A stretch of DNA of 64,000 bases, taken from a virus. Shown here piece by piece: positions 17,018-54,696 of the stretch. Where the stretch lies: positions 32,001-96,000 of the IMG/VR virus record IMGVR_UViG_3300042922_000982, one strand, 5' to 3'. The translations under genes were made by a program, and so were the position numbers. Numbering within the stretch: the stretch's first letter is position 1; the number at the start of each line of letters is the position of its first letter. Below the pieces are notes generated by a model. It made no database searches, was not told where the DNA came from, and saw nothing but the letters and a program-made list of their open reading frames with translations.

Positions 17018-17287
17018 GTGGCGATCGCCATCACCCACGCGAAGGGGAGCAAGCCCGCCTCGGCGGGCGCGCCGTTCACGGTGACGGTCGCGTTCGAGTG
17101 CGACACCGAGGGCGAGTCCTACCGCCTCGCCGAGCTATTCAAGCTGGGCGAGGGCTTCGAACGAACCCTCGACGCCCTGGTGGCGCTGTCTCGCGACGGC
17201 GCCGCCCTCGATGCCCTGCTTGCCACCTGGCAGGAGGTGCGCGGGCTTGCGGGGCCCCCAGGAACGGTTTTTCACCCGCCTGGATAG
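17018..17287 (+). CDS. hypothetical protein; C-terminus (GPPGTVFHPPG) encoded by cassette copy 7
   Basis: Stop is the TAG of GGATAG. Confidence 0.65.
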   Translation: MAIAITHAKGSKPASAGAPFTVTVAFECDTEGESYRLAELFKLGEGFERTLDALVALSRDGAALDALLATWQEVRGLAGPPGTVFHPPG

Positions 17288-17298
17288 TAGACAGTAGG
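17261..17298 (+). promoter_or_regulatory. cassette promoter motif, copy 7
   Basis: GGAAC-N16-GGATA-N9-AGG followed by GCAA-loop hairpin. Confidence 0.8.
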
Positions 17299-17360
17299 GA
17301 GGGGCTACCGGGCAACCGGCGGCCCCTCCTCCGTCACCCCCATCGCCCAAGGAGAACCCC

Positions 17361-17657
17361 ATGCAGAACCACGCCATCCCCACCCCCAACGACTCGCTCG
17401 CCCCCGTGATCGCGGGCCCGGCGCGCGCCGTGCCGCGCTTGTCGATCGCCGCGCTGCTCGCCGCCCGTGAGGCCAAGAAGGCCAACGGCCCCTGGGTGCC
17501 CGCCTGCGGCGGCACCGAGACGCCCTTCACGAGCCGGTCGGGCAAGGTGCTGCTCTACTGCTACCAGGCCACCACGGGCCGCCACGCCTACCTCGATTGT
17601 GGCACGGACCTCATCCTCACCGATGAGGAGGCCCGCGCCGCCCTGATGCTGTACTAG
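17361..17657 (+). CDS. conserved phage hypothetical protein
   Basis: AAGGAG SD; WVPACGGTETPF...LLYCYQ..TGRHAYLD. Confidence 0.8.
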   Translation: MQNHAIPTPNDSLAPVIAGPARAVPRLSIAALLAAREAKKANGPWVPACGGTETPFTSRSGKVLLYCYQATTGRHAYLDCGTDLILTDEEARAALMLY

Positions 17658-17666
17658 GAGCCCGCC

Positions 17667-18224
17667 ATGAGCACCTACTCAACCCCCACCCTCCCCAACC
17701 AGGGCGAGGCGCGCCGCTTGATCGACGCGGCCATGATCGCGTGCACCAAGGCGACGGCCGCCACGGCCACGGCGCTCGCCAACAGCGCCATGGCCTTCGA
17801 GTGGACCGGCACGATCGAGGGCCACCGGGCCTACGTGTTCGACAAGGACACCGACGGCGCGCGCATCTACCTCTTCGGCGCGGTCGGCGCCTGGCACGCC
17901 TACCTGCCGATGGGCTGGCTCAACCCGACGCCCATGTTCGGCGACGACCCCGAGGCGCTCGTCGCCGCCGCCTTCGCCGGGCGGCCCGACGCGCGCGAGC
18001 TGGCAGGGGCGTTCGGTGAGGCGCGGCGGCTCTCAAGGAGCAAGCCGGACGGCACCTTCGCCGACGCCTACATCGTGCGCGATCCCGCCGGGCGCTGGAC
18101 GGCCTGCGACTTCGGCTACTTGCTGGAGCAGCGCATCACCGCCGAGCGCGTGGCCTACACCTGGCGCCTGGGCGGCATGCGACCCGGCTACATCGCGCCG
18201 AACACAGCCTTCCCCTCGATCTAA
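17667..18224 (+). CDS. hypothetical protein
   Basis: AGGAG SD. Confidence 0.8.
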   Translation: MSTYSTPTLPNQGEARRLIDAAMIACTKATAATATALANSAMAFEWTGTIEGHRAYVFDKDTDGARIYLFGAVGAWHAYLPMGWLNPTPMFGDDPEALVAAAFAGRPDARELAGAFGEARRLSRSKPDGTFADAYIVRDPAGRWTACDFGYLLEQRITAERVAYTWRLGGMRPGYIAPNTAFPSI

Positions 18225-18281
18225 CCCCCCACCCCCGCCGCCCGGTTCGCCGGGCGGCTTCTCACGACAAGGAGAACCGCC

Positions 18282-18575
18282 ATGACTACCGTTCGCCAGA
18301 TGAAACAACTGCTCGCGGCCTACCCCGACGACGCCAAGGTCGTGATCGTCTACCAGCCGAGCTACCCGATGATGTCCGGCATCTCGGGCGTCGCCGACAA
18401 CATCGCCTGCGCGCAGGCCGAGCTGGACGAGTACGGCCCCGACGACGATGACGACGAGGACGCGGAGCCCGCCGCGCCCCCCGCGCTGCCCACGACGGTC
18501 GACACGGTCTACATCGCCGCGTCCGGCGGCAACACGTACGCGCCTGCGGGCGTCTACAACGCGGTCAGGAGCTAG
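18282..18575 (+). CDS. conserved small acidic phage protein (TVRQMKQLLAAYPDDAKV..YQPSYP)
   Basis: Start-associated motif. Confidence 0.8.
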   Translation: MTTVRQMKQLLAAYPDDAKVVIVYQPSYPMMSGISGVADNIACAQAELDEYGPDDDDDEDAEPAAPPALPTTVDTVYIAASGGNTYAPAGVYNAVRS

Positions 18576-18579
18576 AGCG

Positions 18580-19092
18580 ATGGCACACCTGCGCAACCGC
18601 CGGGCCACCTGGATCACCAACGAGGACGCGTTCGATCGCGTGAGCAAGGCCCTCTGGGCCGAGTTGTTCGCGGACCTGTACCGCGAACAGCACCCCGGCG
18701 CCACCGAGGGCGAAATCTGGGCGGACGTCCAGAGGCGGCTCGCCCGGCTCGGCAGCGGCAGCCAGATGGCGCCCAAGCCCCGCACCGAGCGCGTGGCCGC
18801 CGACGTGCTGGCCGCAGCCAGCGAGCCGGTCATCCTGCGCGCGCTCAGCCACAACGGCCACGGCGGGCTCAAGGTGCTGCTCAACGTCGAGCGGGGGCCG
18901 TTCGGGCTCGGCCGCGTGCTGGTCTACGACGAGCGCGTGACGGCCGAGCCCGGCAAGAAGCCGCACGCCCGGCAGCCCGCCGGGCCGGTCAAGGCGCACC
19001 GCAGCCGCAAGGACGCGATCGCCTACCTGGTCGAGCTATGGTACGGCCCCGGCGCCCCGTTCACCATGCAAGACGCCAAGCGCGAGGACTGA
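18580..19092 (+). CDS. hypothetical protein
   Basis: AGGAG SD. Confidence 0.75.
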   Translation: MAHLRNRRATWITNEDAFDRVSKALWAELFADLYREQHPGATEGEIWADVQRRLARLGSGSQMAPKPRTERVAADVLAAASEPVILRALSHNGHGGLKVLLNVERGPFGLGRVLVYDERVTAEPGKKPHARQPAGPVKAHRSRKDAIAYLVELWYGPGAPFTMQDAKRED

Positions 19093-19113
19093 CGCCCGGC
19101 CGTCGGGCCGCCA

Positions 19114-19151
19114 GGAACGGTTTTTCACCCGCCTGGATAGTAGGCAGTAGG
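19114..19151 (+). promoter_or_regulatory. cassette promoter motif, copy 8
   Basis: GGAAC-N16-GGATA-N9-AGG. Confidence 0.8.
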
Positions 19152-19204
19152 GAGGGCTGGGCGGCACGCGCCGCGCGCCCCTCCCCCGTCAACGGAGCAA
19201 CGCC

Positions 19205-19555
19205 ATGACCACCACCGACAGACACCCGGCGATCGCCTACCCCATGTTCGACACCCACGGCTACTTCCATGGCATCGTCACGCCGGAGGGGGTCGCCGAT
19301 GGCTACACCTACACCCTGACCCACATGATCGCACCCGCCGAGTACGGCCCCCTGATCGGCCCCTACCAGCGCGCCTGGACGAAGCCGCCGATCGTGGCCG
19401 CCGCCACGGCGGTGTCGCACCGGGGCCTGCTGTGGCCGATCGTTACCGAGGGCGTGAACGCGGGCACCGCCTCCCTGCCCTGGGTGCCGAGCGCCGAGTG
19501 GTGCTACACCCCCAACATCCGCCTCTGGCCCTCGGGCTTCCACTCCATCGACTAG
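19205..19555 (+). CDS. hypothetical protein
   Basis: GGAG SD. Confidence 0.75.
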   Translation: MTTTDRHPAIAYPMFDTHGYFHGIVTPEGVADGYTYTLTHMIAPAEYGPLIGPYQRAWTKPPIVAAATAVSHRGLLWPIVTEGVNAGTASLPWVPSAEWCYTPNIRLWPSGFHSID

Positions 19556-19633
19556 CCTATGACCCGCACTCGAACAAGGTTTCGAGTGCGAACCCCTGCC
19601 CGCCCGGTATACAATCCCACAAGGAGAACCGCC

Positions 19634-20035
19634 ATGACCTTCGAGACCCTCATCCACGCCGAGGCCACGCCCCAGGCCCGCGAGCTGGCCCTGCACCAGC
19701 TGGTGGCCATCGGGCTGGTGCCCACCCCCCTTGCCGCCTGGCACACCGACGAGCTGCTGGTTGTGCACGAGGCCGACGTGCTCCGCCTGATCGCCGACGG
19801 CGTGCGCGGCCAGCTGGCCAGGGTCGAGCGCGGCTTGCGCTTCTTGGTCGACGGCTTCGAGGTGGCCACCGACTTCACCGACTCGGCCGACGCGATCTAC
19901 CCGATCGCCTTCTTGGTGCACGGCATCGTCGTCGGCAAGTTCACCACGCTCGCCGAGATGAACGCCGCCGTGCACACGCTCGCGCTCGCCTCGGTCGGCG
20001 ATCGCCTCACCGCCCTGCGGGGCCGCAAAACGTAA
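19634..20035 (+). CDS. hypothetical protein
   Basis: Start-associated motif; TACAAT at 19610. Confidence 0.8.
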   Translation: MTFETLIHAEATPQARELALHQLVAIGLVPTPLAAWHTDELLVVHEADVLRLIADGVRGQLARVERGLRFLVDGFEVATDFTDSADAIYPIAFLVHGIVVGKFTTLAEMNAAVHTLALASVGDRLTALRGRKT

Positions 20036-20065
20036 AGCTCACCCCCACACGAAAGGAGGCGCCCC

Positions 20066-20509
20066 ATGCGCGCTTGGCTACTTGCATTGACCCTCACGCT
20101 CCTGGCGGCCCTCCCGGCCGCCGCATCCCCCCTCTCGGTAGACGAGCTGACCTTCGCGGTCGGCCCCGCCTCCGGGCTCGAGGACGCCGAGCGGGACACC
20201 TTGTACCGCGCCAAGTACGCGCACCGGGCGCTCGCCGTCACCGGCGGCCTGCTCTACGTCGACATCAACAAGGACGGCTCGCTCACGGCCACCCTGGCGA
20301 TCGCATCGGAGACCATGACCGGCAAGACGGCCTTCGTGCACCTGGCGGCCGGGCAGCGTGACAAGCTGCGCCGGGTGCCGCACGGCGGCCGGGTGACCGC
20401 CACCGGCAAGCTCTACGTCTACCAGGGGCTGCCGAGCGTGATCACCAGCATGCGCAGCCCCTACTTCACGGGCGCCGACGTGGTGATCTACGACGCCCAC
20501 ATCCGCTAA
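20066..20509 (+). CDS. exported OB-fold protein (tRNA_anti-like)
   Basis: Signal peptide MRAWLLALTLTLLAALPAAA; AKY...LAVTG...VTATGKL pattern. Confidence 0.6.
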   Translation: MRAWLLALTLTLLAALPAAASPLSVDELTFAVGPASGLEDAERDTLYRAKYAHRALAVTGGLLYVDINKDGSLTATLAIASETMTGKTAFVHLAAGQRDKLRRVPHGGRVTATGKLYVYQGLPSVITSMRSPYFTGADVVIYDAHIR

Positions 20510-20540
20510 CCCTAACATCACCCCATCAAGGAGAACCGCC

Positions 20541-20819
20541 ATGCTCAAGATCGACCGCCTTCAAGCCCAATGCCGCGCCGGGGGGGCGCCCACCGCCCAG
20601 GACGGGCTGTGGCTGGTGGAGAAGGTCAACCAGCTGCGTCACGCCCTGGCCATGCAAAGCACCCAGGTGGCCATTCCGCACCCGCTTGTCATGCAAATGG
20701 CCTCCAAGGACGCCGAACGCGCCCTGCTGGATGCCTGCCTGGAGGACGGCGCCGAGGAGCCGCCGCGCGGCAACGAGTCCTGGGCCGAGTGGGGCCTCGA
20801 CAAGCCCGCCAAGCAGTAG
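20541..20819 (+). CDS. hypothetical protein
   Basis: Start-associated motif. Confidence 0.75.
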   Translation: MLKIDRLQAQCRAGGAPTAQDGLWLVEKVNQLRHALAMQSTQVAIPHPLVMQMASKDAERALLDACLEDGAEEPPRGNESWAEWGLDKPAKQ

Positions 20820-21708: not shown

Positions 21709-21773
21709 CCCCGACGCCTGCCGCCCACCCGTTACCCCCACCCCCGTTACCCCCATCGATAAGGAGAACCGCC

Positions 21774-22589
21774 ATGACCATCGAGACCCCCAACACCGAG
21801 CCCCGCCGCGCCCTCGCGTTCGGCTACCACCACCCCGCGATTCAAGACTCCAAGGCCGCCTGGGGCGCCCGCGCCATCATCAAGAACGGCGTGCTGGACA
21901 TCGTCTGGGACCGCTGCGATCGCATCGGCACCGACGCCGACTTCGCCCCCATGCGCGCCATCCTCGAGGGCGGCGCGCTGGCCCGCGTGCATCGGGTCGT
22001 GAAGGCGTACTACAACCAGGGCGTGGTGCGCAACGACAAGGCCGCCGAGGTCACGCTCTACCTCGACGACACGATCATGATCGTCGGCAACACGAACGGC
22101 TCGTACGGCTACATGTACCTGGCCGCCTTCTACACCGACGAGGCGGCGGGCCAGGTGCGCCGCACCCTGTACCGCACCACCACCGAGCTGGCCGCCGAGA
22201 CCTGGCTCGCCCAGCTCTACACGCCCGACGGGGTGCGCGTGGGCACCTTCGACGGCTACACCCGCGAGGACCTGATCATGGCCTCGGACGCCGCGATGAT
22301 CGCCGACATGGCGGTGGACATCGTCCCGGCGCCCGACGGCTTCAAGCCGCAGCCGCTGCCGAAGCGGGCCTTCGGCTACGAGATGGTCAAGGCGACCCTC
22401 TTCAAGACCGAGCGGTGCCCGGTGAAGGACGTCCCGCTCTACGGCTCCTGGATCCTGAAGGTGAAGGATACCGCGACCGGCGAGTGGGCGGCGCCGTGGA
22501 GCAGCCACTTCGGCAAGAACGAGGCCAAGGCTCAGCTCAAGCTGCTCAAGGCGATCCACAAGGGCTCGACCTTCACGGAGGTCAAGTAG
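21774..22589 (+). CDS. CbeA/YeeU (YagB/YafW/YfjZ) type IV antitoxin-like N-terminal domain with C-terminal extension
   Basis: WGARAII...DR..RIG and EVTLY...GNTNGSYGYMYLAAF resemble YeeU-family FGARLVQ...DRAGIRG and TVTLY...ADTL.SC.YVYLAVY (recalled). Confidence 0.7.
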   Translation: MTIETPNTEPRRALAFGYHHPAIQDSKAAWGARAIIKNGVLDIVWDRCDRIGTDADFAPMRAILEGGALARVHRVVKAYYNQGVVRNDKAAEVTLYLDDTIMIVGNTNGSYGYMYLAAFYTDEAAGQVRRTLYRTTTELAAETWLAQLYTPDGVRVGTFDGYTREDLIMASDAAMIADMAVDIVPAPDGFKPQPLPKRAFGYEMVKATLFKTERCPVKDVPLYGSWILKVKDTATGEWAAPWSSHFGKNEAKAQLKLLKAIHKGSTFTEVK

Positions 22590-23119: not shown

Positions 23120-23415
23120 GCACCGTGATCCATTGGCGTCCGGCCGGGGTGCTGGCGGGCGCCTACCCCGGCGCCAAGCGGGGGCACACCTTCGCCCTCG
23201 ATCGGGGCGTCACCCATGCCGAGGTGCTGCGCGCGTTTCGGCTCGGCCGGTTCTCACGCGAGCCGAACGAGGCGCTGTGCCGGGGCGTGCAGCGCGAGAA
23301 CCTCGGCGATCGCTTCGGTACGGACCCCGACGATCAGGTGACGTGCCCCCGCTGCCAGGACTTGCTGTCCCGGCACGCCAACGAACGGCACGATCCACTC
23401 GAGGATTTCTTCTAG
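23116..23415 (+). CDS. H-C-CxxC Zn-finger protein, similar to the upstream C-terminus
   Basis: ATGA overlap; THAEV...EALC...TCPRC. Confidence 0.75.
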   Translation: MSTVIHWRPAGVLAGAYPGAKRGHTFALDRGVTHAEVLRAFRLGRFSREPNEALCRGVQRENLGDRFGTDPDDQVTCPRCQDLLSRHANERHDPLEDFF

Positions 23416-23423
23416 GGCCCCCA

Positions 23424-23461
23424 GGAACGGTTTTTTCGGGGCCTGGATAGTAGATAGTAGG
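23424..23461 (+). promoter_or_regulatory. cassette promoter motif, copy 9
   Basis: GGAAC-N16-GGATA-N9-AGG. Confidence 0.8.
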
Positions 23462-23522
23462 GAGGGGGCCGGGCAACCGGCGCCCCTCCTCCGCTACCCC
23501 CACCGACGAAAGGACACCCGCC

Positions 23523-23957
23523 ATGAACACCAAGAACCCGCACCTCCCCACCCACAAGGGCGCCCACACCAAGGGCCCGAACCACTGGATCATCACCCGC
23601 GATCACTTCGCCGACGCGAACGAGCGCATGGGCACCAACGCCAACGCGCCCGGCGTGCGCTCGCGCAAATGCCCGATCGACCCCGACCTGACCGGCCTCA
23701 CCGCCGATCAGGCCGCCGAGAAGATCGCAAAGCTCGCCAAGGCGGCGGGCATGACCCTGCGCTTCCGCCTGCTCGCCGACGGCGATTCGGACGGCGAGCT
23801 GGAGCTTGTCTACGAGGGCTACATGATGCCCTTCGACCGCCACAACGAGAACGCCGACGGCTTCGAGCCGCAGGACAACTTCGGCGAGGGCAACTTCGGC
23901 ACCACCACGCTCCAGTACTGGAAGCCCGGCAAGGGCGGCGGCTGGGCGATCCTGTAA
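23523..23957 (+). CDS. hypothetical phage protein
   Basis: AAAGGA SD. Confidence 0.8.
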   Translation: MNTKNPHLPTHKGAHTKGPNHWIITRDHFADANERMGTNANAPGVRSRKCPIDPDLTGLTADQAAEKIAKLAKAAGMTLRFRLLADGDSDGELELVYEGYMMPFDRHNENADGFEPQDNFGEGNFGTTTLQYWKPGKGGGWAIL

Positions 23958-28535: not shown

Positions 28536-29337
28536 AAACCGCGAAGGCAAGCTTGCCTGTAAGGCTTGCGGGGCCTACATACCCGTCACCTTCACCGATG
28601 AACGTCAGAACGTGCGCTGCCCGCAGGCCGCGTGTCGCGAGGTCTCGACCGTGCCGACCTTCGCCGAGGCGCGGGCCGTGTGCATCTATCCGGCGGCGAC
28701 CCCGCAGGCCCCGGCGCCGAGCGTGGCCCCGATGGGCTACACGATCGCCGTCGAGGAGGTGGTGCCCTTCTTTCTCACCATCACGAGCGACAACGGGCAG
28801 ACGACCGAGTGGGAGATCGACGAGCAAAACGACAAGGTGCGCGCCGACCTGGAGCGCCTCGGCTTCCGCTTGACGGACGCGAAGCGCGGGCTCTGGCTGC
28901 CGCCCGTGCCGCCCATGTACCTGATCGCCACCTCGCACGATAGCCCCGACGACTTCGCGCACCACCTGATCGGCCCCTTCGCGGGCCGCGACGAGGCGTT
29001 CGCCACCGCGCTCGACGACCCGAGCTACTCCAGCACGTCGGGGGCGTGGGAGCCGACCACCTGGGTGGCGGATCCGAGCGATCACTACGGCTTCCGGCCG
29101 GACAAGCGCCACCCGGCGCTCGGCGGGCTTCCTGCCCCGGAGGTCCTGGCGCCGGGCGAGGTGCTGCGCGCGCGCATCGCGTACCGCACGCGCATGGCCG
29201 ACGTGCTGCGCGCGCGGCTCACGGCGCGCCCCGACGCGACGTACCTGCTCGCCCAGGCCGAGGCCATGGAGGCGGCGATCGCCGTGGCGCACGCCTGGCT
29301 CGACGCCCAGGGCGAGCTGGAGGCCCCCCGTGGCTGA
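28525..29337 (+). CDS. hypothetical protein with N-terminal Zn ribbon
   Basis: GGAGG + GTG; CKAC...CPQAAC. Confidence 0.75.
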   Translation: MGTENREGKLACKACGAYIPVTFTDERQNVRCPQAACREVSTVPTFAEARAVCIYPAATPQAPAPSVAPMGYTIAVEEVVPFFLTITSDNGQTTEWEIDEQNDKVRADLERLGFRLTDAKRGLWLPPVPPMYLIATSHDSPDDFAHHLIGPFAGRDEAFATALDDPSYSSTSGAWEPTTWVADPSDHYGFRPDKRHPALGGLPAPEVLAPGEVLRARIAYRTRMADVLRARLTARPDATYLLAQAEAMEAAIAVAHAWLDAQGELEAPRG

Positions 29338-29809
29338 GGGCGCGATCAGCTACTTCGTGCTGGGCTACAAGGGCGGCACGAACACCGTCAAGCTGCTCGA
29401 GTGGGCGCCCGAGCGGGTCAGCATCCGGGGCGCGCGCGGCGAGGTGACCGAGCAAGTCGGCGGCTGGGCCTCCGACATGGAGGAGTCGCTCTACAACCTG
29501 CGCTCACAGCTGCCGGACGGCCTGTTCGCGGCCTACGTGACCCTGTGGTGCAGCCAGGGGATGGAGGACTGGGATCAAGGCGAGCACCTGCTCGCGGTGA
29601 TGCCCGTCGAGACGATCGCCTGGCGGCACACCTGGGGCCCCTTGCGCACCACGCACGAGGAGCGGCGCTACGCGGCCGACAAGGAGCTGGTCGCGCACAT
29701 GCGCGCCATGGAGGCCCAGTGGGACGCCGAGGCCGCCGAAATCAACGCGGCGATGGGCCTTGACGCGCCCGGCGGGCCCCCAGGAACGCTTTTTCACCCG
29801 CCTGGATAG
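29330..29809 (+). CDS. hypothetical protein; C-terminus (GPPGTLFHPPG) encoded by cassette copy 10
   Basis: GGAGG + GTG; stop is the TAG of GGATAG. Confidence 0.75.
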   Translation: MAEGAISYFVLGYKGGTNTVKLLEWAPERVSIRGARGEVTEQVGGWASDMEESLYNLRSQLPDGLFAAYVTLWCSQGMEDWDQGEHLLAVMPVETIAWRHTWGPLRTTHEERRYAADKELVAHMRAMEAQWDAEAAEINAAMGLDAPGGPPGTLFHPPG

Positions 29810-29820
29810 TGGAGGGTAGG
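29783..29820 (+). promoter_or_regulatory. cassette promoter motif, copy 10
   Basis: GGAAC-N16-GGATA-N9-AGG. Confidence 0.75.
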
Positions 29821-29851
29821 AGCCCCCACCACCCGCCAAGGAGAACCCGCC

Positions 29852-30067
29852 ATGACTACCCCCGAGCCCTCGCCTCGCCGCCTCGTCTGGAGCGGCGGGG
29901 CGCTCGTCGCCCTCGATAACGACGGCGAGATGACCACCCCCACCGACGCCGAGCTTCAGGACTACCAGGCCGCCTTCTACGGCGGCGCGGTGGGCTGCGG
30001 CTGCGGCGACCCCGGCAACACCCCCGATTGTGACGGGTGCGGGCCCAACAGCCCGCGCCCCTTGTAA
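29852..30067 (+). CDS. small Cys-rich protein
   Basis: AAGGAG SD; CGC...CDGC. Confidence 0.7.
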   Translation: MTTPEPSPRRLVWSGGALVALDNDGEMTTPTDAELQDYQAAFYGGAVGCGCGDPGNTPDCDGCGPNSPRPL

Positions 30068-30077: not shown

Positions 30078-30581
30078 ATGGCCATACTACCCAAGCACCT
30101 CTGGGCCAACAGCCCGGAGCGGCCCGCGCCCAACCCGGACAAGGTGCCCACCGCCGCCGACGCGGCGGAGATTGCCCTGTACATGGTGAACCCCACGGGC
30201 ACCGGCCACGGCCGGTTGCGCTACTGGCGCTTCACGCTCGACGGCGCCACCTGCCAGCTGGACTGGGGCAGCCTCAAGATCACCTGCGACGGCGCCAACT
30301 TCGGCGTCGGCTACCCGGAGCCTCCGGCCGCCAACACCGAGAAGAGCCCCGAGGCGCTCGCCGCGCACCTGGCGCTCCACCTCGATGGCATGGTGGCCGC
30401 CGCCCGCGCCAAGATCGCCGATCGCAAGCAGACGCTCGCCAGCAGGCCGCGCGGCGTGCTGGTGTCTGCGGGCACCTACGCCCTGCTCGAAGCCGCCGCC
30501 GCCAAGTCGGGCGCCGCCGACCTCGACACCTGGGCCGACGACCTGCTCCGCGAGCAGGCCACGGCCATCCTCACCCGTTAA
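30078..30581 (+). CDS. hypothetical protein
   Basis: AAGGAG SD. Confidence 0.8.
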   Translation: MAILPKHLWANSPERPAPNPDKVPTAADAAEIALYMVNPTGTGHGRLRYWRFTLDGATCQLDWGSLKITCDGANFGVGYPEPPAANTEKSPEALAAHLALHLDGMVAAARAKIADRKQTLASRPRGVLVSAGTYALLEAAAAKSGAADLDTWADDLLREQATAILTR

Positions 30582-30647
30582 CCCAGCCTGACGCCATCCG
30601 TGGCGTAGAGGCCCTCACCCCCACCCCCAACGACAAGGAGAACCGCC

Positions 30648-30995
30648 ATGACCTCACTCAACCCCCTCAAGCGCGAGGCCCCCCCGGCCTGGCTCAACCC
30701 CATCTGGAGCTACGTCGGCATCTTGCGCAGCGTGAACCGGGTCGCCGACCCCACGCGCCGCGAGGCCATGCTCGCCGAGGCGGTGGCCACCGGCTACTTG
30801 GATCAGGGCGCGGCCGACACCTACGCGGTCACGCTCGCCACCGCCGGGCGCATCAACGACGAGCGGCTGCGCCAGCTGGAGCAGAGCCGCGTCAACCTGG
30901 CGACCGCCCGGCAGGCGATCGAGCAGGAGGAGTGGGCGCTCAAGGTGGACGCCGAGATCATGCGCATCGCCATGGGCAAGGACGGCGGGGAGTGA
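30648..30995 (+). CDS. hypothetical protein
   Basis: Start-associated motif. Confidence 0.8.
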   Translation: MTSLNPLKREAPPAWLNPIWSYVGILRSVNRVADPTRREAMLAEAVATGYLDQGAADTYAVTLATAGRINDERLRQLEQSRVNLATARQAIEQEEWALKVDAEIMRIAMGKDGGE

Positions 30996-37115: not shown

Positions 37116-37132
37116 CACCCGCCGGGCCCCCA

Positions 37133-37170
37133 GGAACGGTTTTCCGGGGGCCCGGATAACGAAACACAGG
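37133..37170 (+). promoter_or_regulatory. cassette promoter motif, copy 11
   Basis: GGAAC-N16-GGATA-N9-AGG. Confidence 0.75.
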
Positions 37171-37225
37171 TGCCCCACCGTGGGGCGCCGATAGCCGCCC
37201 GCGCCAACGGGCAAGGAGAACCGCC

Positions 37226-37867
37226 ATGACCACTGGAGTCGTTCATCGCTACATCGCCGATCTCGTCAAGGTGCGCCACGCCCCCGTGCGCTATGATCAC
37301 GCGGCGAGCCGATACCTGGACCTCGACAACGACGTCTTTTACCCCAAGGACCGCGTCTGGGACTACAAGAAGAACGCCCAGGAGGCCAACGATCCGGCCA
37401 CCGCCGAGGAGGTCCTGCTCGCCATGGCCGTGGAGGTGGTGGCCGCCGCGCCGGGCGAGTTTAGCTTCGACGGGCTCGTCGATCACCTGCTCGCGCCGCG
37501 CCGCGCGCCGCTGATCTCGACCCCGGCGCGCGACGCGCGCCTACGCGCGCTGCCGCACCACCACGCCCTGCGCACGGCCGACATGACCATGGTGCACGTC
37601 CGGCCCCGGCTGGAGCGGGTGATCCGCGAGGCGGTCGCCAAGGAGGGCTTTATCGAGGTGGGCATCTGGCGCAGCCTCTACCCGGCCGGGCACCACTACC
37701 CCTGTGACGTGTGGGACGTGCGAAAGCGCGAGTTCGCGGCCAGGGGGCTCACCCGCCGGGCGGCCGAGCTTGAAATGGTGCGGCTCGCCAAGGCGAACGG
37801 CTCGCGCTACCAGGTGGTGGCCGATCACCAGACGCTCGACTCCTATTACCCGTACGGGCAGGACTAG
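37226..37867 (+). CDS. hypothetical protein
   Basis: Start-associated motif. Confidence 0.8.
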   Translation: MTTGVVHRYIADLVKVRHAPVRYDHAASRYLDLDNDVFYPKDRVWDYKKNAQEANDPATAEEVLLAMAVEVVAAAPGEFSFDGLVDHLLAPRRAPLISTPARDARLRALPHHHALRTADMTMVHVRPRLERVIREAVAKEGFIEVGIWRSLYPAGHHYPCDVWDVRKREFAARGLTRRAAELEMVRLAKANGSRYQVVADHQTLDSYYPYGQD

Positions 37868-42533: not shown

Positions 42534-42569
42534 GTCGTTTGGGGTAAAAAGGGGGCCTCGGGGCCTTGA

Positions 42570-42607
42570 GGAACGGTTTTTCTTGGGGCAGGATAGAAGG
42601 TAGTAGG
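42570..42607 (+). promoter_or_regulatory. cassette promoter motif, copy 12
   Basis: GGAAC-N16-GGATA-N9-AGG directly after a terminator. Confidence 0.8.
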
Positions 42608-42653
42608 GGCGGGCGCGTGTCCGCCGCCACACCGGCCGAAAGGAGGCCCCACC

Positions 42654-42827
42654 ATGCAGACCTCGACACCCACGGCGCGCTACCGCGTCGAGCGGCTCGC
42701 ACGGGGGCGGAAACGCCCCTTGTGGCTGGCCGTGGACGGCGCGACCGGCGCCACTCTGCACCCCTTCCCCACCCAGCGCATGGCCGTCCAGTACGTCGGC
42801 CTGCGCAACACCGAGCCGGGCCTGTAG
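42654..42827 (+). CDS. small hypothetical protein (57 aa, not in ORF track)
   Basis: AAGGAGG SD; MQTSTPTARYRVERL... Confidence 0.7.
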   Translation: MQTSTPTARYRVERLARGRKRPLWLAVDGATGATLHPFPTQRMAVQYVGLRNTEPGL

Positions 42828-43365: not shown

Positions 43366-43387
43366 CGATCGAGGCCCAGGGCCCCCA

Positions 43388-43425
43388 GGAACGGTTTTTT
43401 CGGGGCCTGGATAGTAGAGAGTAGG
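43388..43425 (+). promoter_or_regulatory. cassette promoter motif, copy 13
   Basis: GGAAC-N16-GGATA-N9-AGG. Confidence 0.8.
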
Positions 43426-43485
43426 GAGGGGGCCGGTTGCCCGGCGCCCTCCCCCGTCACCCCCACCGTCAAAAGGAGAACCGCC

Positions 43486-43902
43486 ATGACCACCAAGACC
43501 AGCACCCGCACCTCCCGCGCGCCCAAGGCGAAAGCCATGGCCGTGGACCCCCGGCCCAAGACCAAGCTGCCGCGCAAGCGTCGCTCGGACGCGGGCGTGC
43601 CGCGCACCCTCGACAAGCCGCGCATGGGCTTCCTCGCCGACCTGTTCGCCGAGGCGCCCGTGCACACCCCGGCCCCGGAGGAGCGCACCTTCTGGATCAC
43701 CGAGTCGCCCAGCGGCTTGTACCTGGTGCGCCCCACCGAGTTCGAGGCGCGCGTGGCCGTGAACAAGTGCGGCAACCGCGCGATCGGCACGGTGAAAGCG
43801 AAGGACTACCACGCCGCCACGCTCCTGGCCATGGCCATGGAGCAGCGCGACTACCCCGGCGACGCCCGCTTCGTCCGCGCTACCCGCGCGGCGCGCGCTT
43901 AA
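43486..43902 (+). CDS. hypothetical basic protein (RKRRSDAG motif)
   Basis: Start-associated motif. Confidence 0.8.
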   Translation: MTTKTSTRTSRAPKAKAMAVDPRPKTKLPRKRRSDAGVPRTLDKPRMGFLADLFAEAPVHTPAPEERTFWITESPSGLYLVRPTEFEARVAVNKCGNRAIGTVKAKDYHAATLLAMAMEQRDYPGDARFVRATRAARA

Positions 43903-44510: not shown

Positions 44511-44547
44511 TCCCGCCCCCCTACCGCCCCGGCCGCCCGGCCGGGGC
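44508..44547 (+). repeat. about 40-bp near-identical direct repeat (second copy 45189-45227)
   Basis: TAGTCCCGCCCCC(C)TACCGC(C/A)CCGGCC(G/A)CCCGGCCGGGGC. Confidence 0.85.
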
Positions 44548-44563
44548 ATCGAGGAGAGCCGCC

Positions 44564-45191: not shown

Positions 45192-45246
45192 TCCCGCCCC
45201 CTACCGCACCGGCCACCCGGCCGGGGCCCGCCCAAGGAGTACCGTC

Positions 45247-45489: not shown

Positions 45490-46234
45490 CGCCCGCTTCA
45501 CCGTTCGGCCCATGGGGGGCCGCGTCCGCACCCCCGAGGACTCCCTGCGCGCCAAGGCCGCCATCAGCCTGAAGCATGCGCATGGCGATCTGCTCAAGCT
45601 GCTGGTCTCGGACGGCCCGGACTACGTCGACGACCCGGAGGCGGCCGGGGCGATCAACCTGGCCGACGGCCTGGTGTCGTTCGGGCGCGTGTGGCCCATG
45701 GACACGCCCAACATGGCCATGAGCTACGCCAAGCTGCATCCGCTCTACCCCGGCGAGTGGGGCACCTTCACCGTGCGTCCCCTCACCGCGCGCGAGTGGG
45801 AGGCCATCCCGTACAAGAAGCGGCTGGAGTGCACCTTCTTGACGATCATCTACGAGTGGCCCGAGGGTCCGGACTACAACCCGCCCCCCGAGCGTCCGCC
45901 CCTGCACATCGCCGACGTCGTGCCGGTGAAGCAGCTGCAAGCGGCGATCGACACGGCCTTTCAGGCGATCGAAAGCGAGCGCGCCCTGCGCTTCGAGCGC
46001 GATCCGTGGGTGCTGACCCCGCAGACGCTGCCCGACGCGCTGGCGCGCTCGCTCGCCGAGCTGATCCCGATGGCCGAGGCTGCCAACCTCAACGACGGCC
46101 ACCCCCTGGGCATCGTGGAGGGCGCCAAGCGCGCGCTCCGCGAGTGGAGCGCCCTGGTCAACCCGACACCCCCGCCCCCGGCTTCTAGCCGGGGTATCGG
46201 GCCCCCAGGAACGGTTTTTTCGGGGCGTGGATAG
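45482..46234 (+). CDS. hypothetical protein; C-terminus reads through a hairpin and cassette copy 14
   Basis: GGAGG SD; ends GPPGTVFSGRG at the TAG of GGATAG. Confidence 0.75.
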   Translation: MRSARFTVRPMGGRVRTPEDSLRAKAAISLKHAHGDLLKLLVSDGPDYVDDPEAAGAINLADGLVSFGRVWPMDTPNMAMSYAKLHPLYPGEWGTFTVRPLTAREWEAIPYKKRLECTFLTIIYEWPEGPDYNPPPERPPLHIADVVPVKQLQAAIDTAFQAIESERALRFERDPWVLTPQTLPDALARSLAELIPMAEAANLNDGHPLGIVEGAKRALREWSALVNPTPPPPASSRGIGPPGTVFSGRG

Positions 46235-46245
46235 CAGTTAGTAGG
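46208..46245 (+). promoter_or_regulatory. cassette promoter motif, copy 14
   Basis: GGAAC-N16-GGATA-N9-AGG. Confidence 0.8.
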
Positions 46246-46308
46246 GAGGGGGGCCGGGCAACCGGCGCCCCGCCCCCGTTACCCCCACCGATGAAAGGAC
46301 ACCCCACC

Positions 46309-46596
46309 ATGCCCAAGACCACCACGCACCTGACGGACAACGAGATCAAGGTGATCAAGGCGATCGTCGAGAGCCCGTACGGCGAGGACCTCACCGACGA
46401 GACCTGGACGATGTACGTCGCCGAGGACGCCAAGCTCACCCCGCGCACCTTCCCCGGCGTCATGTCGAGCCTGGTGCAAAAGGGCCTGGCCGAGACGCGC
46501 GGCGATGGCAAGGAGGCCACCTGCAACCTCACGGACGCGGGCGCCGCGCTCTACAAGACCCACGCGGCCTTCCGTTCCGCGCAGGCCGAGGGCTAG
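46309..46596 (+). CDS. winged-helix DNA-binding-like protein
   Basis: LTDNEIKVIKAI...GVMSSLVQKGL...LTDAG. Confidence 0.7.
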   Translation: MPKTTTHLTDNEIKVIKAIVESPYGEDLTDETWTMYVAEDAKLTPRTFPGVMSSLVQKGLAETRGDGKEATCNLTDAGAALYKTHAAFRSAQAEG

Positions 46597-46837: not shown

Positions 46838-46895
46838 GCCCCACCCTGCCCCGGCGCGCGCCGGGGCGCCACCCCCACCGTTAAGGAGTACCGCC

Positions 46896-48965: not shown

Positions 48966-48993
48966 GCGCCCGATCGGGCCGCCAGGGCCCCCA

Positions 48994-49031
48994 GGAACGC
49001 TTTTTTCGGGGCGTGGATAGTAGATAGTAGG
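48994..49031 (+). promoter_or_regulatory. cassette promoter motif, copy 15
   Basis: GGAAC-N16-GGATA-N9-AGG. Confidence 0.8.
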
Positions 49032-49096
49032 GAGGGGCTACCGGGCAACCGGCGGCCCCTCCTCCGTCACCCCCATCACCGAAAGGAGCGCTCACC

Positions 49097-49498
49097 ATGC
49101 GCATCACCATCCACACCACCGCCACCGAGTCCACCAACGAGCAGAGCCGCACCTACACGGAGCTGCCGATCGCCACCTCCTCCATGTTCACGCACGGCCC
49201 CTGCGACCCCTTCACGATCGTCGCGCACAACGGCGAGGTCGAGTCGGCCTGCACCGTGATCCTGCACGGGCCGAACGGGCACCTGTTCATCATCCTACTC
49301 ACCGGCACGGCCAACGACATCCGGACGATCTTCTGGAACCTGTATTGCAACGCCTACGGCGTGCGCCAGAAGACCTGGGTCGGCGAGATCTACAACACGA
49401 TCGCCGACCACCTGCCCAAGTGCCTGGAGTGCGAGGGCCAGGTGGACGCCACCGGCTGGTGCGCGGCCCGCTGCTGCCCGACGGCCCTCACCTGCTAA
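49097..49498 (+). CDS. hypothetical protein with Cys-rich C-terminus
   Basis: AAAGGAG SD. Confidence 0.75.
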   Translation: MRITIHTTATESTNEQSRTYTELPIATSSMFTHGPCDPFTIVAHNGEVESACTVILHGPNGHLFIILLTGTANDIRTIFWNLYCNAYGVRQKTWVGEIYNTIADHLPKCLECEGQVDATGWCAARCCPTALTC

Positions 49499-49550
49499 GC
49501 CCCCACCGCCCCCGGCCGCACGGCCGGGGGCTTCCCCGGAGGATACCGCC

Positions 49551-50655: not shown

Positions 50656-50670
50656 CCCATGGAGACCCCC

Positions 50671-51204: not shown

Positions 51205-51206
51205 CC

Positions 51207-51386
51207 ATGGCCGTGAATGGCAAGCACAAGAAAACCTGCGGCTCGACGCGCTGCGAGCGGTGCTACGGCGAGATGGTCAACACGCGCCGGAAGCGCGAGC
51301 CCCAGCCCGGCGATCGCAAGAAGATCGCCAGCATGGCGAGTCAGGTGGCCGAGGCGATCGCCCCGGAGCCCCCGCGCGCCCAGTAA
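51207..51386 (+). CDS. small Cys-containing basic protein
   Basis: GGAGG SD; H...CGSTRCERC. Confidence 0.65.
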   Translation: MAVNGKHKKTCGSTRCERCYGEMVNTRRKREPQPGDRKKIASMASQVAEAIAPEPPRAQ

Positions 51387-51394
51387 CCCCCTGC

Positions 51395-51428
51395 ACGCCA
51401 GGCCCCCGTCGCGGGGCCTGGCGTTTTT
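51395..51428 (+). terminator. intrinsic terminator
   Basis: ACGCCAGGCCCC/GGGGCCTGGCGT followed by TTTT. Confidence 0.8.
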
Positions 51429-51493
51429 GCGTCGGTGGGCCCCTGATCGGAGGTAGGATGGGCCTGCTTAACCATCACTTGAGGAGGATTGAC

Positions 51494-52177
51494 ATGCCCA
51501 TTCCCGTGAACACGGCCCCCGCCGACTTGCAGCCCGCGCTGATCGTCGCCTGCAACGAGCTGTCGGATCGCGTCGATGTGCCCCGTGAGGGCACCCGCGC
51601 GCCCGAGTCCTGGGTGCGCTACTTCGCCGCCCGCCCCGGCAGCATCGACCTGGCCAAGCTCGGCGCCATCTGGGCGGCCGTCGTCTACACCGACGCGACC
51701 AAGCAGACGGTGGCCGCCGCCAACGCCGTCCCGGTGATCGATTGCGACGTGGCGACCACGGCCGCGCTCGCCGCCAACACCCTCACCGCTGGCGAGCTGG
51801 TGGCCTCCGCCAACGGCGCGCTCGCCAACATCGACGGCCAGGCCCCCGCGCTCAAGAAGATCGTCCTGGTGAAAAACGAGGCAGACGCCACCAAGCTCGG
51901 CTTCTACGTGATCACCGACCTGGGCTCGGCGGGCACCCCCTGGAAGATGAAGCGCGTTCCGGGCGCCACCTTGCAGAACAAGGCCGCCACGCTGGTCAAG
52001 ACCGGCACGGCCAACGCGAACAAGGTCTTCCGCATCACCACGGCCAACCCGATCGTGGCGGGCACCACGGCGATCGCCTTCGCCGAGCTGGCCTCCGCCA
52101 GCGCGGTCGAGGCCCTCTTCGAGGTGGCCACCGCCTTGCAGCCGACCGTCGGCCTGGTGCTCTCGCCCAAGCTGTAA
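51494..52177 (+). CDS. virion-associated / tail-fibre-like domain protein
   Basis: GAGGAGG SD; VATTAAL...GAL.IDG...IVLVKNE...GFYVITDLGS..TPW pattern seen in phage structural proteins. Confidence 0.6.
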   Translation: MPIPVNTAPADLQPALIVACNELSDRVDVPREGTRAPESWVRYFAARPGSIDLAKLGAIWAAVVYTDATKQTVAAANAVPVIDCDVATTAALAANTLTAGELVASANGALANIDGQAPALKKIVLVKNEADATKLGFYVITDLGSAGTPWKMKRVPGATLQNKAATLVKTGTANANKVFRITTANPIVAGTTAIAFAELASASAVEALFEVATALQPTVGLVLSPKL

Positions 52178-52191
52178 GCACACAACCCCAA

Positions 52192-52236
52192 GGGGCGGTC
52201 CGCATGGTACGATCCATGCGGACCGCCCCCTTTTTT
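52192..52236 (+). terminator. intrinsic terminator
   Basis: 16-bp stem GGGGCGGTCCGCATGG/CCATGCGGACCGCCCC followed by TTTTTT. Confidence 0.85.
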
Positions 52237-52249
52237 ACGGAGAACCGCC

Positions 52250-53128
52250 ATGTCCAAACCGCCTCGCCCCAGATTCATCGTCACGTCCTCGCCCCATATG
52301 GCCGACGATTTCTTCCGCTCCCGGCACGAGATCGCCAAGAGCGTCACTGTGCGGCGCGTCCCGGCCGCCGAGTTCCCGCCTTTGCCCAGGGCGGCCTCGT
52401 GGGGCACGGCGGCCACGGTGCCCCTCGTGGGGGCCCCGACGGCGGCGCCGTTCAGCGTGCCCGAGCGCACGCCCGATCACGCGGCGATCGCCGGGCACAT
52501 CACGCGCCTGATCGCCCACCTGCACACGCCGCCCCCCATGCCCGAGCCCACCAACGTCATGCGCGGCCTGCTCGCACCCGATCTGCGCGAGGCGATCGCG
52601 CGGCAGCGGCAGGGTGCCGACCTGTTCAGGCAGGCGGCCCAACGCGACGCGGAGGGCATCGCCACCGGCCGCATCGAGCTGCGCGCGGACAACCGCGTCC
52701 CGCCGGATCAGGTGCACCTGTTCGATCGCGCCGGGCGCCGCACAGGTGCGATCACCAACCTCGACAACGACACCCTCTCGGCCCCATGGCCCACCGGCGT
52801 ATGGGCGGGCGACCCCCGCGAGGAGGCCCCGTGGCCGTACCGGCCGCGCCGGGGTGGCGGCTTCATGCAGATGGACGAGCAAGCCTTCAAGCCGAAGGAG
52901 CCCCCGATGCGGACGATCGCCTTCAAGTGCCGGGGCTGCGGCGCCACGGGCGTGGTCGACGTGCCCGAGCCCATCTTCAACGACGTGGGGGTGAAGGTGG
53001 TCGTGGACATGACGCAACAGGCCACGGCCGACGGCTGCCTCAAGTGCATGGACGCGGTGCATGGGCTCGGCTACTCGATCGGTGTGACCTACCCCTACCC
53101 GGCCGACTGGCTCGAGCCCCGGCGGTAG
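52250..53128 (+). CDS. hypothetical protein with C-terminal CxxC...CxxC
   Basis: Start-associated motif; TAG abuts copy 16. Confidence 0.7.
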   Translation: MSKPPRPRFIVTSSPHMADDFFRSRHEIAKSVTVRRVPAAEFPPLPRAASWGTAATVPLVGAPTAAPFSVPERTPDHAAIAGHITRLIAHLHTPPPMPEPTNVMRGLLAPDLREAIARQRQGADLFRQAAQRDAEGIATGRIELRADNRVPPDQVHLFDRAGRRTGAITNLDNDTLSAPWPTGVWAGDPREEAPWPYRPRRGGGFMQMDEQAFKPKEPPMRTIAFKCRGCGATGVVDVPEPIFNDVGVKVVVDMTQQATADGCLKCMDAVHGLGYSIGVTYPYPADWLEPRR

Positions 53129-53136
53129 GGCCCCCA

Positions 53137-53174
53137 GGAACGGTTTTTTCGGGGCCTGGATAGCAGGTAGTAGG
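53137..53174 (+). promoter_or_regulatory. cassette promoter motif, copy 16
   Basis: GGAAC-N16-GGATA-N9-AGG. Confidence 0.8.
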
Positions 53175-53225
53175 GAGGGCTGGGCGGCACGCGCCGCGCA
53201 CCCCTCCCCGCTACGGAGAACCGCC

Positions 53226-53432
53226 ATGGACACCCCACCCACCGTCACCATCCCCGATCGCCTGTACCGCGCCGCCGTGCGGCTCGTCAATAGCACCTTC
53301 CCCGGCGCCGCGCCCACGCACGGCCTGATGGGTGCCTGCTTCGTGGAGACGCCCGCCGGGCGCATCCTCGGCGCGGGCCCCAGCTTCCGCGAGGCGTACG
53401 TCGTCGCGGCCGAGCGCCTGGCCGCCCGCTAA
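53226..53432 (+). CDS. small hypothetical protein
   Basis: Start-associated motif. Confidence 0.75.
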   Translation: MDTPPTVTIPDRLYRAAVRLVNSTFPGAAPTHGLMGACFVETPAGRILGAGPSFREAYVVAAERLAAR

Positions 53433-53502
53433 CCCCACCCCCGTCACCCCAGCCTTCCGCCACCCGTGGCGTGGAGGCCCCACCGTTACAAGGAGAACCG
53501 CC

Positions 53503-53931
53503 ATGGGACACTACCTCACGCACACCACCCTCGATCACGCCATCACCTACGCCACCAACGAGCCCGAGACGGCCGTCATTCACGTCCTGACCGACCCCAA
53601 GCTGGGGCCGATCACCACCACGAGTACCGACGCGGCCATGTACGCCCTGCGCCAGGGGGCCACGCACCACCTGACGCTCAACGGCCCCAAGCTGGTCGAG
53701 CCCGAGAACTACAAGCCCGCGCCGCTGCCGCCCAAGGCCGAGGGCTACGCAAACGTGGCCGTGTTCGAGCCGTACGGCCTGGGCAAGCGCGACCTGGTCG
53801 ACGTGTACGTGCGCCTGGTGGGCGCCCGCGTCGAGATCCAGCTCGACGACAAGCAGGCGAAAACGATGCACGCGAACGCCACCTCCTTGATCAACCTGCC
53901 CCACACCACTTGCGCCATCTTCTGGCGGTGA
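53503..53931 (+). CDS. hypothetical protein
   Basis: Start-associated motif. Confidence 0.8.
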   Translation: MGHYLTHTTLDHAITYATNEPETAVIHVLTDPKLGPITTTSTDAAMYALRQGATHHLTLNGPKLVEPENYKPAPLPPKAEGYANVAVFEPYGLGKRDLVDVYVRLVGARVEIQLDDKQAKTMHANATSLINLPHTTCAIFWR

Positions 53932-53945
53932 AAGGACCCTACGCC

Positions 53946-54254
53946 ATGACGAACCTCAACACCCCCGCCCCCCTGGCCCCCGAGGCCGCCCTCACGGCCA
54001 CCGTCGCCGCCTTGCAGGGCGTCTTGCAAAGCATCGAGCGCGGTGACACCGGCACCACGCCGTCGGTGCGCCGGATGATCGCCCAGGCGATCGCGATCGG
54101 CTGCACGACGCTCGGCGACCCCGAGGGCGCATCCGACGCGGAATCCAAGCAGGATCCGCCCGAGCCGAAGGGCCTGAGCCCGGAGGACTACTTCGCCGGG
54201 CCGCGCCCGTACCGCGCGCTGGGCGGGCACCCCCGCTCGACCCTGCTGCGCTAG
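53946..54254 (+). CDS. hypothetical protein
   Basis: AAAGGA SD. Confidence 0.7.
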   Translation: MTNLNTPAPLAPEAALTATVAALQGVLQSIERGDTGTTPSVRRMIAQAIAIGCTTLGDPEGASDAESKQDPPEPKGLSPEDYFAGPRPYRALGGHPRSTLLR

Positions 54255-54264
54255 GGGGCCGCCG

Positions 54265-54582
54265 ATGACGACCCCGAAGATCACCAGGAAGGCCAAGGGC
54301 CTGCTCGACAAGCCCCTGGTCCTCGACGCCATGATGAACGGCCGGTACGTCGTGGAGACGAAGGCGGGCCGTTTCGTCGGCGCCTTCGACACCATGGGGG
54401 AGGCGCAAGAGGCCGCATTCAACGACGAGCGGGCGGCGCACCACGAGCTGCACTACCCGCTCGACGAGCAGGCCCTGCGCAAGCTCAGGATCCGCATGCT
54501 CGAAATCCCGAGCGACGAGCGGGTGGTGCGGGCGATCGCCGCGCTTGACGACGCCATGAAAAAGCGCGGGGTCACCGCGTAG
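54265..54582 (+). CDS. hypothetical protein
   Basis: Co-oriented ORF; TAG abuts copy 17. Confidence 0.75.
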   Translation: MTTPKITRKAKGLLDKPLVLDAMMNGRYVVETKAGRFVGAFDTMGEAQEAAFNDERAAHHELHYPLDEQALRKLRIRMLEIPSDERVVRAIAALDDAMKKRGVTA

Positions 54583-54590
54583 GGCCGCCA

Positions 54591-54628
54591 GGAACGGTTT
54601 TTCACCCGCCTGGATAACAGGTGGCAGG
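54591..54628 (+). promoter_or_regulatory. cassette promoter motif, copy 17
   Basis: GGAAC-N16-GGATA-N9-AGG. Confidence 0.8.
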
Positions 54629-54696
54629 GAGGGCTGGGCGGCACGCGCCGCGCACCCCCCCCCCGCGCCACCCCCATCGTCGCGAGGAGAATCGCC

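Follow-up and report, generated by a model that had tools for sequence, protein, structure and literature searches.

How did the copies of a short regulatory repeat in a soil phage come to join two kinds of left half and two kinds of right half in all four combinations? The repeat, here called the cassette, consists of two promoter-like boxes, a leader hairpin and a ribosome-binding site, and it lies in the window analysed here, a 64,000-nt stretch comprising bases 32001-96000 of the single 157,406-bp virus record IMGVR_UViG_3300042922_000982 in IMG/VR. With moderate confidence, we attribute the mosaic to short-patch conversion or template switching among these promoter-leader cassettes, which would be evolving in concert. 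The record (69% GC, complete according to CheckV) represents an uncultured soil phage, a myophage whose encoded tail sheath distantly resembles that of SPO1-type myophages. By third-position GC calling, the genes of the record fall into a minus block (0-32 kb), a plus block (32.3-91.8 kb) and another minus block (91.8-157 kb). The pattern GGAAC-N16-GGATA occurs exactly 17 times genome-wide, always on the plus strand, within the plus block and between window positions 336 and 54591, and the 11-nt core singled out by an earlier note on this sequence occurs 9 times against 0.63 expected. Every copy is intergenic, lies 69-120 nt 5' of an ATG, and forms a unit of ~100-135 nt; together the co-oriented units head orphan-gene blocks in a 54-kb same-strand array. 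Among the 33 plus-block proteins scanned, just two, a DUF932 protein and a beta clamp, match a Pfam or PHROGs family, and no Rfam family was found in the window.

Counted from the G of GGAAC, cassette positions -9 to -1 read GGGCCCCCA almost without variation across copies. The order of elements is CCCnCA-GGAACG(G/C), a 14-nt spacer opening with T4-T8, GGATA(G/A), nine variable bases ending in A, and the hairpin, followed by a C-rich tract (C-box), often ACCCCCACCG, and then the Shine-Dalgarno (SD) sequence and the ATG. The gap between the boxes is fixed at 16 nt. A hairpin is predicted in 16 of the 17 copies, and in 15 it begins 9 nt after the second box whatever its sequence, the exceptions being copy 6, where it begins right after GGATAG, and copy 10, which has none. 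The hairpins share the base GGGAGGG/CCCTCCC and vary at the tip, and the constant feature of the leader is thus a structure at a fixed offset, not a sequence. Three spacer types recur: S1 (T5 + CACCCGCC) in copies 7, 8, 10 and 17, S2 (T6 + CGGGG) in copies 3, 9 and 13-16, and S3 in copies 2 and 5. A stem around the first box is possible where the spacer is S2, S3 or that of copy 11, each able to base-pair with the upstream GGGCCCC, but not where it is S1; in S2-type copies this stem has no T tail. Hairpin A (tip CCGG-GCAA-CCGG) is found in copies 7, 9, 14 and 15 and, with an inverted loop, in copy 13; hairpin B in copies 8, 16 and 17; type C in copies 1 and 3 and type D in copies 2 and 5, both with a second stem. 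Copies 4, 6, 11 and 12 have unique hairpins, and a terminator-like stem ending in a T run occurs in copies 1 and 4 only. The 17 cassettes are as follows.

Cassette 1: 326-458, plus strand, GGAAC at 336; own spacer, hairpin C, SD GGAG; at the divergence point of the minus and plus gene blocks.
Cassette 2: 2321-2441, plus strand, GGAAC at 2331; S3, hairpin D; 5' of DUF932, a position kept in relatives R and R2 (see below).
Cassette 3: 8195-8326, plus strand, GGAAC at 8205; S2, hairpin C, SD variant GGAC.
Cassette 4: 8666-8786, plus strand, GGAAC at 8676; unique spacer and hairpin, double C-box; terminator-like stem ending GGAA + T-run.
Cassette 5: 11735-11856, plus strand, GGAAC at 11745; S3, hairpin D; ~95% identical to cassette 2; 5' of an orphan gene without homologue.
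Cassette 6: 13899-13998, plus strand, GGAAC at 13909; S1-like spacer; unique hairpin directly after GGATAG.
Cassette 7: 17251-17363, plus strand, GGAAC at 17261; S1 and hairpin A1; right part as in cassette 15.
Cassette 8: 19104-19207, plus strand, GGAAC at 19114; S1 and hairpin B.
Cassette 9: 23414-23525, plus strand, GGAAC at 23424; S2 and hairpin A2, SD variant GGAC; left half identical to 13 and 16.
Cassette 10: 29773-29854, plus strand, GGAAC at 29783; S1, GGAACGC, short leader without hairpin.
Cassette 11: 37123-37228, plus strand, GGAAC at 37133; unique spacer in an 8-bp stem with upstream GGGCCCCC; unique hairpin.
Cassette 12: 42560-42656, plus strand, GGAAC at 42570; most diverged left half; hairpin loop GCGT.
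Cassette 13: 43378-43488, plus strand, GGAAC at 43388; S2 and hairpin A, with the loop being the reverse complement of GCAA.
Cassette 14: 46198-46311, plus strand, GGAAC at 46208; S2 and hairpin A2, SD variant GGAC.
Cassette 15: 48984-49099, plus strand, GGAAC at 48994; mosaic, left like 14 and 3, right (+22 to +83) like 7; exchange interval ~49014-49038.
Cassette 16: 53127-53228, plus strand, GGAAC at 53137; mosaic, left identical to 9 and 13, right like 8 and 17; exchange interval ~53157-53181.
Cassette 17: 54581-54699, plus strand, GGAAC at 54591; S1 and hairpin B, GGATAA.

Five copies carry the mosaic: copy 7 joins S1 to A, copy 15 S2 to A, copies 8 and 17 S1 to B, and copy 16 S2 to B. The earlier note had sorted the copies into two spacer and two hairpin types and claimed that all four left/right combinations occur; each of its assignments is correct, and these five copies bear the claim out. 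It had also described copies 7 and 15 as nearly identical for about 60 nt on the right but different on the left, which agrees with our count of one mismatch from +22 to +83 beside 7 of 14 differing spacer positions, and copies 2 and 5 as matching over about 90 bp with one mismatch, which we find as a single difference in ~93 nt. The patch common to copies 7 and 15 stops 17 nt before the ATG. On its left side, copy 15 instead resembles copy 14 (one mismatch from -9 to +26). The left half of copy 16 is identical to that of copies 9 and 13 (30/30), and its right half differs from copy 8 at three positions over +21 to +72. Because the spacer states differ at at least five adjacent positions and the hairpin tips cannot be aligned, sequence exchange between copies is needed, and parallel or recurrent mutation is not a credible source of the mosaic. 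The crossovers had been placed in the core by the earlier note, and the exchange interval between spacer and hairpin indeed maps to the invariant core (+20 to +44), but there is more than one interval. The SD variant AAAGGAC is present in copies 3, 9 and 14, with GGAG in the remaining copies, and hairpin type and SD variant again show all four combinations, which are tree-incompatible in the module table, as are those of spacer and hairpin; spacer type and C-box variant occur in all four combinations too. This places a second exchange interval between hairpin and SD. Copy 3 has S2 on the left and GGAC on the right as in copies 9 and 14, yet carries hairpin C between them. Overall, sequence exchange between cassette copies, with the conserved core as the main interval, is well supported.

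The left/right conflict was also recovered by the PHI (pairwise homoplasy index) test and the separate left and right trees that the earlier note had proposed, and congruence was not found. PHI, in our own implementation with site permutation, gave p = 0.0025 for the eight A/B copies, <0.0005 for 12 copies and 0.03 for all 17. Pairwise distances of left and right halves were not significantly correlated (Mantel r = 0.15-0.25, p = 0.08-0.14), and genomic distance between copies predicted neither left- nor right-half similarity. In the maximum-likelihood tree of the right half, in which the hairpin tips of different types are not truly alignable, {7,15} had support of 99/97 and {8,16,17} of 92/86; by the approximately unbiased (AU) test the left half rejected both groups, marginally (AU 0.036 and 0.044). 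Conversely, the right half rejected the left group {7,8,17} (support 90/91; AU 6e-6) and the identical-left group {9,13,16} (AU 1e-4). The block-level argument for exchange does not depend on the PHI and AU tests.

Under the mechanism we favour, the copies would exchange sequence through recurrent one-way copying of short patches, by gene conversion or by template switching during replication, with the invariant 23-nt core and the C-box/SD stretch providing the homology. Spacer, hairpin tip and SD variant would then assort almost independently, giving the four-combination pattern. Since neither end of the shared patches (copies 7 and 15; hairpin C of copy 3) reaches beyond the cassette, conversion accounts for them better than single crossovers do, and the exchanges were probably conversions rather than crossovers. 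Gene duplication as the origin of the copies was ruled out, because similarity is confined to about -13 to the ATG and the flanking proteins are not paralogues. The tip of copy 13 (43432-43443) has the loop TTGC where copy 9 (23468-23479) has GCAA, an exact inversion between identical palindromic arms. Such a loop inversion is the classic footprint of intrastrand template switching (quasipalindrome mutagenesis), and it hints that replication errors contribute to the exchange.

Relatives of the phage proved rare. The cassette pattern gave nothing in IMG/VR, or one chance match inside a coding region, was not found in the JGI metagenomes, and had eight single matches in unrelated bacteria among the GTDB genomes, approximately the chance expectation. 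Locus searches of IMG/VR with the clamp and DUF932 proteins gave no relatives, blastn against GenBank phages returned one short, weak match only, and the genes that follow cassettes 5 and 11 matched only themselves in homologue searches, which leaves no synteny comparison. The next-best match of the clamp, P0003, was rejected as a phage relative, being a bacterial dnaA-dnaN locus. Protein search of Logan contigs did identify two distant phage relatives, R (L015-L017; clamp 42% and DUF932 49% identical) and R2 (L024; DUF932 50% identical, 60% GC). Contig L015 starts inside one cassette leader, spans DUF932 and clamp, and finishes inside the next cassette, and in R2 a cassette lies directly 5' of DUF932. 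Both relatives retain the two boxes with their 16-nt gap and, nine bases after the second box, a hairpin that opens with GG, whereas spacer and hairpin sequences differ; the two leader hairpins of R are alike. Because the boxes and the position are kept in three distant phages, the cassette before DUF932 is old. Yet copy 2, which occupies this position, matches its paralogue copy 5 at 22 of 23 non-box positions and along the whole leader, compared with 13 of 23 for R and R2. An old position combined with recent identity between paralogues indicates that cassette sequence has been copied between loci without the genes, i.e., concerted evolution. The usual examples of concerted evolution by ectopic gene conversion are rRNA operons, tuf genes and gene families. 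As in those dispersed repeats, paralogous copies here are far closer than orthologues and identity is patchy, with tracts ending inside the repeat; unlike them, the repeats are only ~110 nt long, with homology blocks of 23-50 nt.

Two further features of R2 were noted. At ~5405-5450 and ~5915-5960, L024 carries two copies of a different repeat (CTTTACCTTC, ~22 nt, then TGTGGATAAC), a candidate origin or second promoter class; TGTGGATAAC is the exact complement of a DnaA box and also overlaps the cassettes' GGATAA box. In addition, an AAA ATPase gene (L024 2931-3929, minus strand) adjoins the cassette-DUF932 unit divergently. It is homologous to a gene of our phage at genome positions 139714-140709 (minus strand; ~39% over 109 aa by tblastx), ~105 kb away, which amounts to a large-scale rearrangement between the two phages beside the cassette.

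As for function, the conservation of the GGAAC and GGATA boxes in R and R2 supports a bipartite signal read by a protein, most simply a promoter. The transcript would then begin with, or close to, the leader hairpin, which may have a stabilising or regulatory role. A sigma-70 scan of the first 20 kb, which contain copies 1-8, gave no site at any cassette. Promoters of extracytoplasmic function (ECF) sigma factors have a GGAAC-type -35, a gap of 16-17 nt and a CGT-type -10, and are read by sigma factors with regions 2 and 4 only. The first box and the gap of the cassettes fit this description; the second box, GGATA instead of CGT, does not. Several observations were made where the boxes meet neighbouring features. 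The open reading frames (ORFs) 5' of copies 7 and 10, both S1 (17018-17287 and 29330-29809), continue in frame across the cassette's left half as far as the TAG of GGATAG, where they end. In copies 2, 6, 9, 16 and 17, the TAG that closes the upstream frame runs straight into the first conserved bases (TAG-GGCC). The divergence point of the minus and plus blocks (window positions 295-350) carries a bidirectional terminator, a stem flanked by A7 and T8 (CCGTTCC ... GGAACGG), whose right (descending) arm, GGAACGG + T8, is the first box of cassette 1.

Several points weigh against our reading of the cassettes as promoter-leader units that are converted in concert. The start site and promoter activity of the units are predicted from sequence. 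Sigma70_r2 and Sigma70 r4_2 had no match above threshold in the genome, and an ECF sigma is absent; the sole sigma-like signal is a Sigma70_r3 match (E = 8e-9) in a 2146-aa protein, beside SNF2/helicase domains, which makes this protein a lead, not a result, as the reader of the boxes. No RecA, RecT, Erf, AAA_24, YqaJ, tyrosine or serine recombinase was found in the genome. One genome cannot separate conversion from double crossover, and the argument for concerted evolution relies on two distant relatives known from short contigs only. As for the statistics, the tree groups were named after seeing the data, so that p values near 0.04 are weak, and neither PHI nor AU allows for the pairing of hairpin columns.

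The strongest rival is gene shuffling of the kind described for promoter-early stem-loops (PeSLs) of the T4-type phages phi1/RB49, T4/PST and KVP40/nt-1 (PMC2839356, PMC4122927). Here the mosaics would be chimeric units left by reciprocal crossovers between cassettes, in the course of deletions that release a mini-circle, of re-insertions, or of unequal exchange between genomes in co-infection; the cassettes would act as junctions for the gain, loss and movement of orphan-gene blocks. Anatomy and setting fit the published model, in which a repeated unit of promoter, stem-loop and SD precedes orphan genes (PMC2839356): the cassettes are likewise repeated units of ~100 nt with promoter, stem-loop, SD and start codon, situated mostly before orphan genes (family matches in only 2 of 33 plus-block proteins, with two proteins lacking any homologue) in a plastic region. 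As in PeSLs, similarity along the whole unit makes them natural sites of homologous exchange at which chimeric units are expected, and the model predicts a chimeric unit after excision (PMC2839356). Chimeric left/right units are seen here in copies 15 and 16 by PHI, AU and module incompatibility, and a stable stem-loop in 16 of 17 copies. Moreover, the gene content beside the DUF932 cassette is different in all three phages: DUF932 is followed by three extra genes and then the clamp in our phage, directly by the clamp in R, and by a 91-aa ORF in R2, where both flanks of the cassette-DUF932 unit are different. Against this, each shared patch has both its ends within the cassette, and the indels between our phage and R inside the DUF932-clamp block lie at other hairpin/SD junctions, with the cassettes at both block ends kept. 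Contigs from the probable source run (the sole public run that holds the phage, from which the Logan contigs derive) join no non-adjacent blocks, and three checked joints at cassettes turned out, by the letters between their two sides, to be other copies (1, 3 and 6); the remaining joints have sides of only 20-39 nt, those of 20-21 nt being weak, and contigs cannot show rare recombinants. The gene indels at units and the mini-circles that define PeSLs were not seen here, where the comparison comprised distant relatives and contigs only. The homology proposed for short-patch copying would also permit deletion or insertion of blocks between copies as in PeSLs; no such event was seen. The earlier note had called the elements recombination junctions, of which exchange between copies is supported; rearrangement of the flanking genes found no support, as neighbouring genes were not paralogous and contigs had no variant joins. 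Overall, gene shuffling at the cassettes is plausible, and that it produced the mosaics is possible although we consider it the less likely account.

New relative to PeSLs are the non-sigma-70 boxes (GGAAC/GGATA instead of a sigma-70 consensus with an AT-rich upstream region), the fixed leader hairpin (a constant stem-loop after the second box, terminator-like in only two copies), and the high-GC soil lineage (a 69% GC phage unrelated to the T4 group). The start-associated SAS and extended SAS of Cluster K mycobacteriophages offer another comparison. SAS are a 13-nt ribosome-binding-site motif, about half of them carry an inverted repeat with a variable spacer, and, like the cassettes, they are dispersed, co-oriented repeats just 5' of start codons in a high-GC phage (PMC3203893). 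In related phages an SAS site accompanies one and the same gene family, as the cassette accompanies DUF932; unlike the cassettes, SAS have no promoter boxes and no sequence similarity to them, and the parts of the source consulted describe no mosaicism or exchange (PMC3203893).

Short-patch copying was further weighed against three accounts that invoke no such exchange. It is very unlikely that spacer and hairpin variants are alternative functional states reached independently by selection. Selection clearly acts on the boxes and on the position of the hairpin, and the ability of S2, S3 and the spacer of copy 11, but not of S1, to pair with the GGGCCCC upstream hints at two functional classes. 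But such convergence would have to produce identical 14-nt spacers in four copies, and identical leaders of 50-60 nt, including positions that look unselected, beside different left halves; the unique hairpins of copies 4, 6, 11 and 12 show that the structure does not force identity. That a metagenome assembler joined halves of different copies across the shared core is more improbable still. The sequence does come from a soil metagenome, and most cassettes interrupt the Logan contigs of that run, but the independent Logan assembly has the S2+A1 join of copy 15 in a single contig (record 3), its 65-nt record 6 spans the S2+B join of copy 16 from spacer to tip, depth is uniform at ~30, and the shared exact stretches of 31-52 nt are below ordinary read length; the mosaic is probably not an assembly artefact. 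Finally, although the co-oriented array of orphan genes separated by hairpin units with a conserved base and variable tip recalls integron attC sites with a dedicated recombinase moving gene cassettes, the CheckV-complete genome has no tyrosine or serine recombinase match (PF00589, PF00239), the units bear promoter-like boxes and an SD 5' of genes, and it is the boxes, not the hairpin, that are conserved in relatives, which together leave this account with hardly any probability.

Parts of the cassette also occur on their own. Right-hand modules without promoter boxes are present at four or five other gene starts, including the following.

21720-21779, plus strand: promoter-less doubled C-box + SD/ATG module.
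30580-30653, plus strand: promoter-less second stem of hairpin type C + C-box + SD/ATG.
53432-53508, plus strand: promoter-less copy of the right-hand module seen at 30580-30653 (type C second stem, C-box, SD).
54965-55013, plus strand: promoter-less C-box + SD/ATG module.

An expanded form of the type C second-stem/C-box/SD module lies 5' of the clamp gene, behind a sigma-70-like extended -10. The intergenic regions of the plus block thus amount to a kit of short, semi-independently assorting parts. One such part, a 16-nt SD/ATG string (AAGGAGAACCGCC + ATG, at most 2 mismatches), is found at 36 gene starts on the plus strand compared with 6 on the minus strand and is an extended, homogenised ribosome-binding module; examples are at 5659, 18269, 27059, 32393 and 56199, and a cassette promoter is absent from most such genes. 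Between genes there is also a second family of GC-hairpins (CCCCGGCC-loop-GGCCGGGG type), which lies directly 5' of the SD of promoter-less genes (3515-3545, 3725-3750, 9170-9200, 18240-18262, 44525-44548, 45205-45230, 46845-46870 and 49510-49535); these may be attenuators or RNA-processing or stability elements. The clamp gene region (6273-6400) has its own terminator and then the sigma-70-like extended -10 (TGGTATCAT), and in R a terminator and a TAAAAT box lie 5' of the clamp gene as well. The string TATCATGG recurs 5' of genes at ~26010 (plus strand) and ~60500 (minus strand), a recurrence that therefore points to a second, host-type promoter class alongside the cassettes.

A broader proposal, which we put forward only tentatively and regard as rather improbable in its entirety, is that the cassettes form a self-contained scaffold for expression and exchange, read by a phage sigma-like factor (possibly delivered with the virion), with hairpin tips being swapped among copies by template switching and the units offering crossover points for the capture, loss and movement of orphan genes; such a scaffold would be PeSL-like, while being independent of sigma-70 and of the T4 lineage. 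If the units do drive expression and serve as exchange points, this would help to explain how large soil phages keep and turn over orphan genes across tens of kilobases with regulation kept intact, and it would extend the PeSL idea past T4-like phages and sigma-70 promoters. The conserved boxes would define a promoter class amenable to experiment through the sigma-like protein of the phage, and the contrast between paralogues and orthologues provides a clean example of concerted evolution in regulatory repeats of 110 nt.

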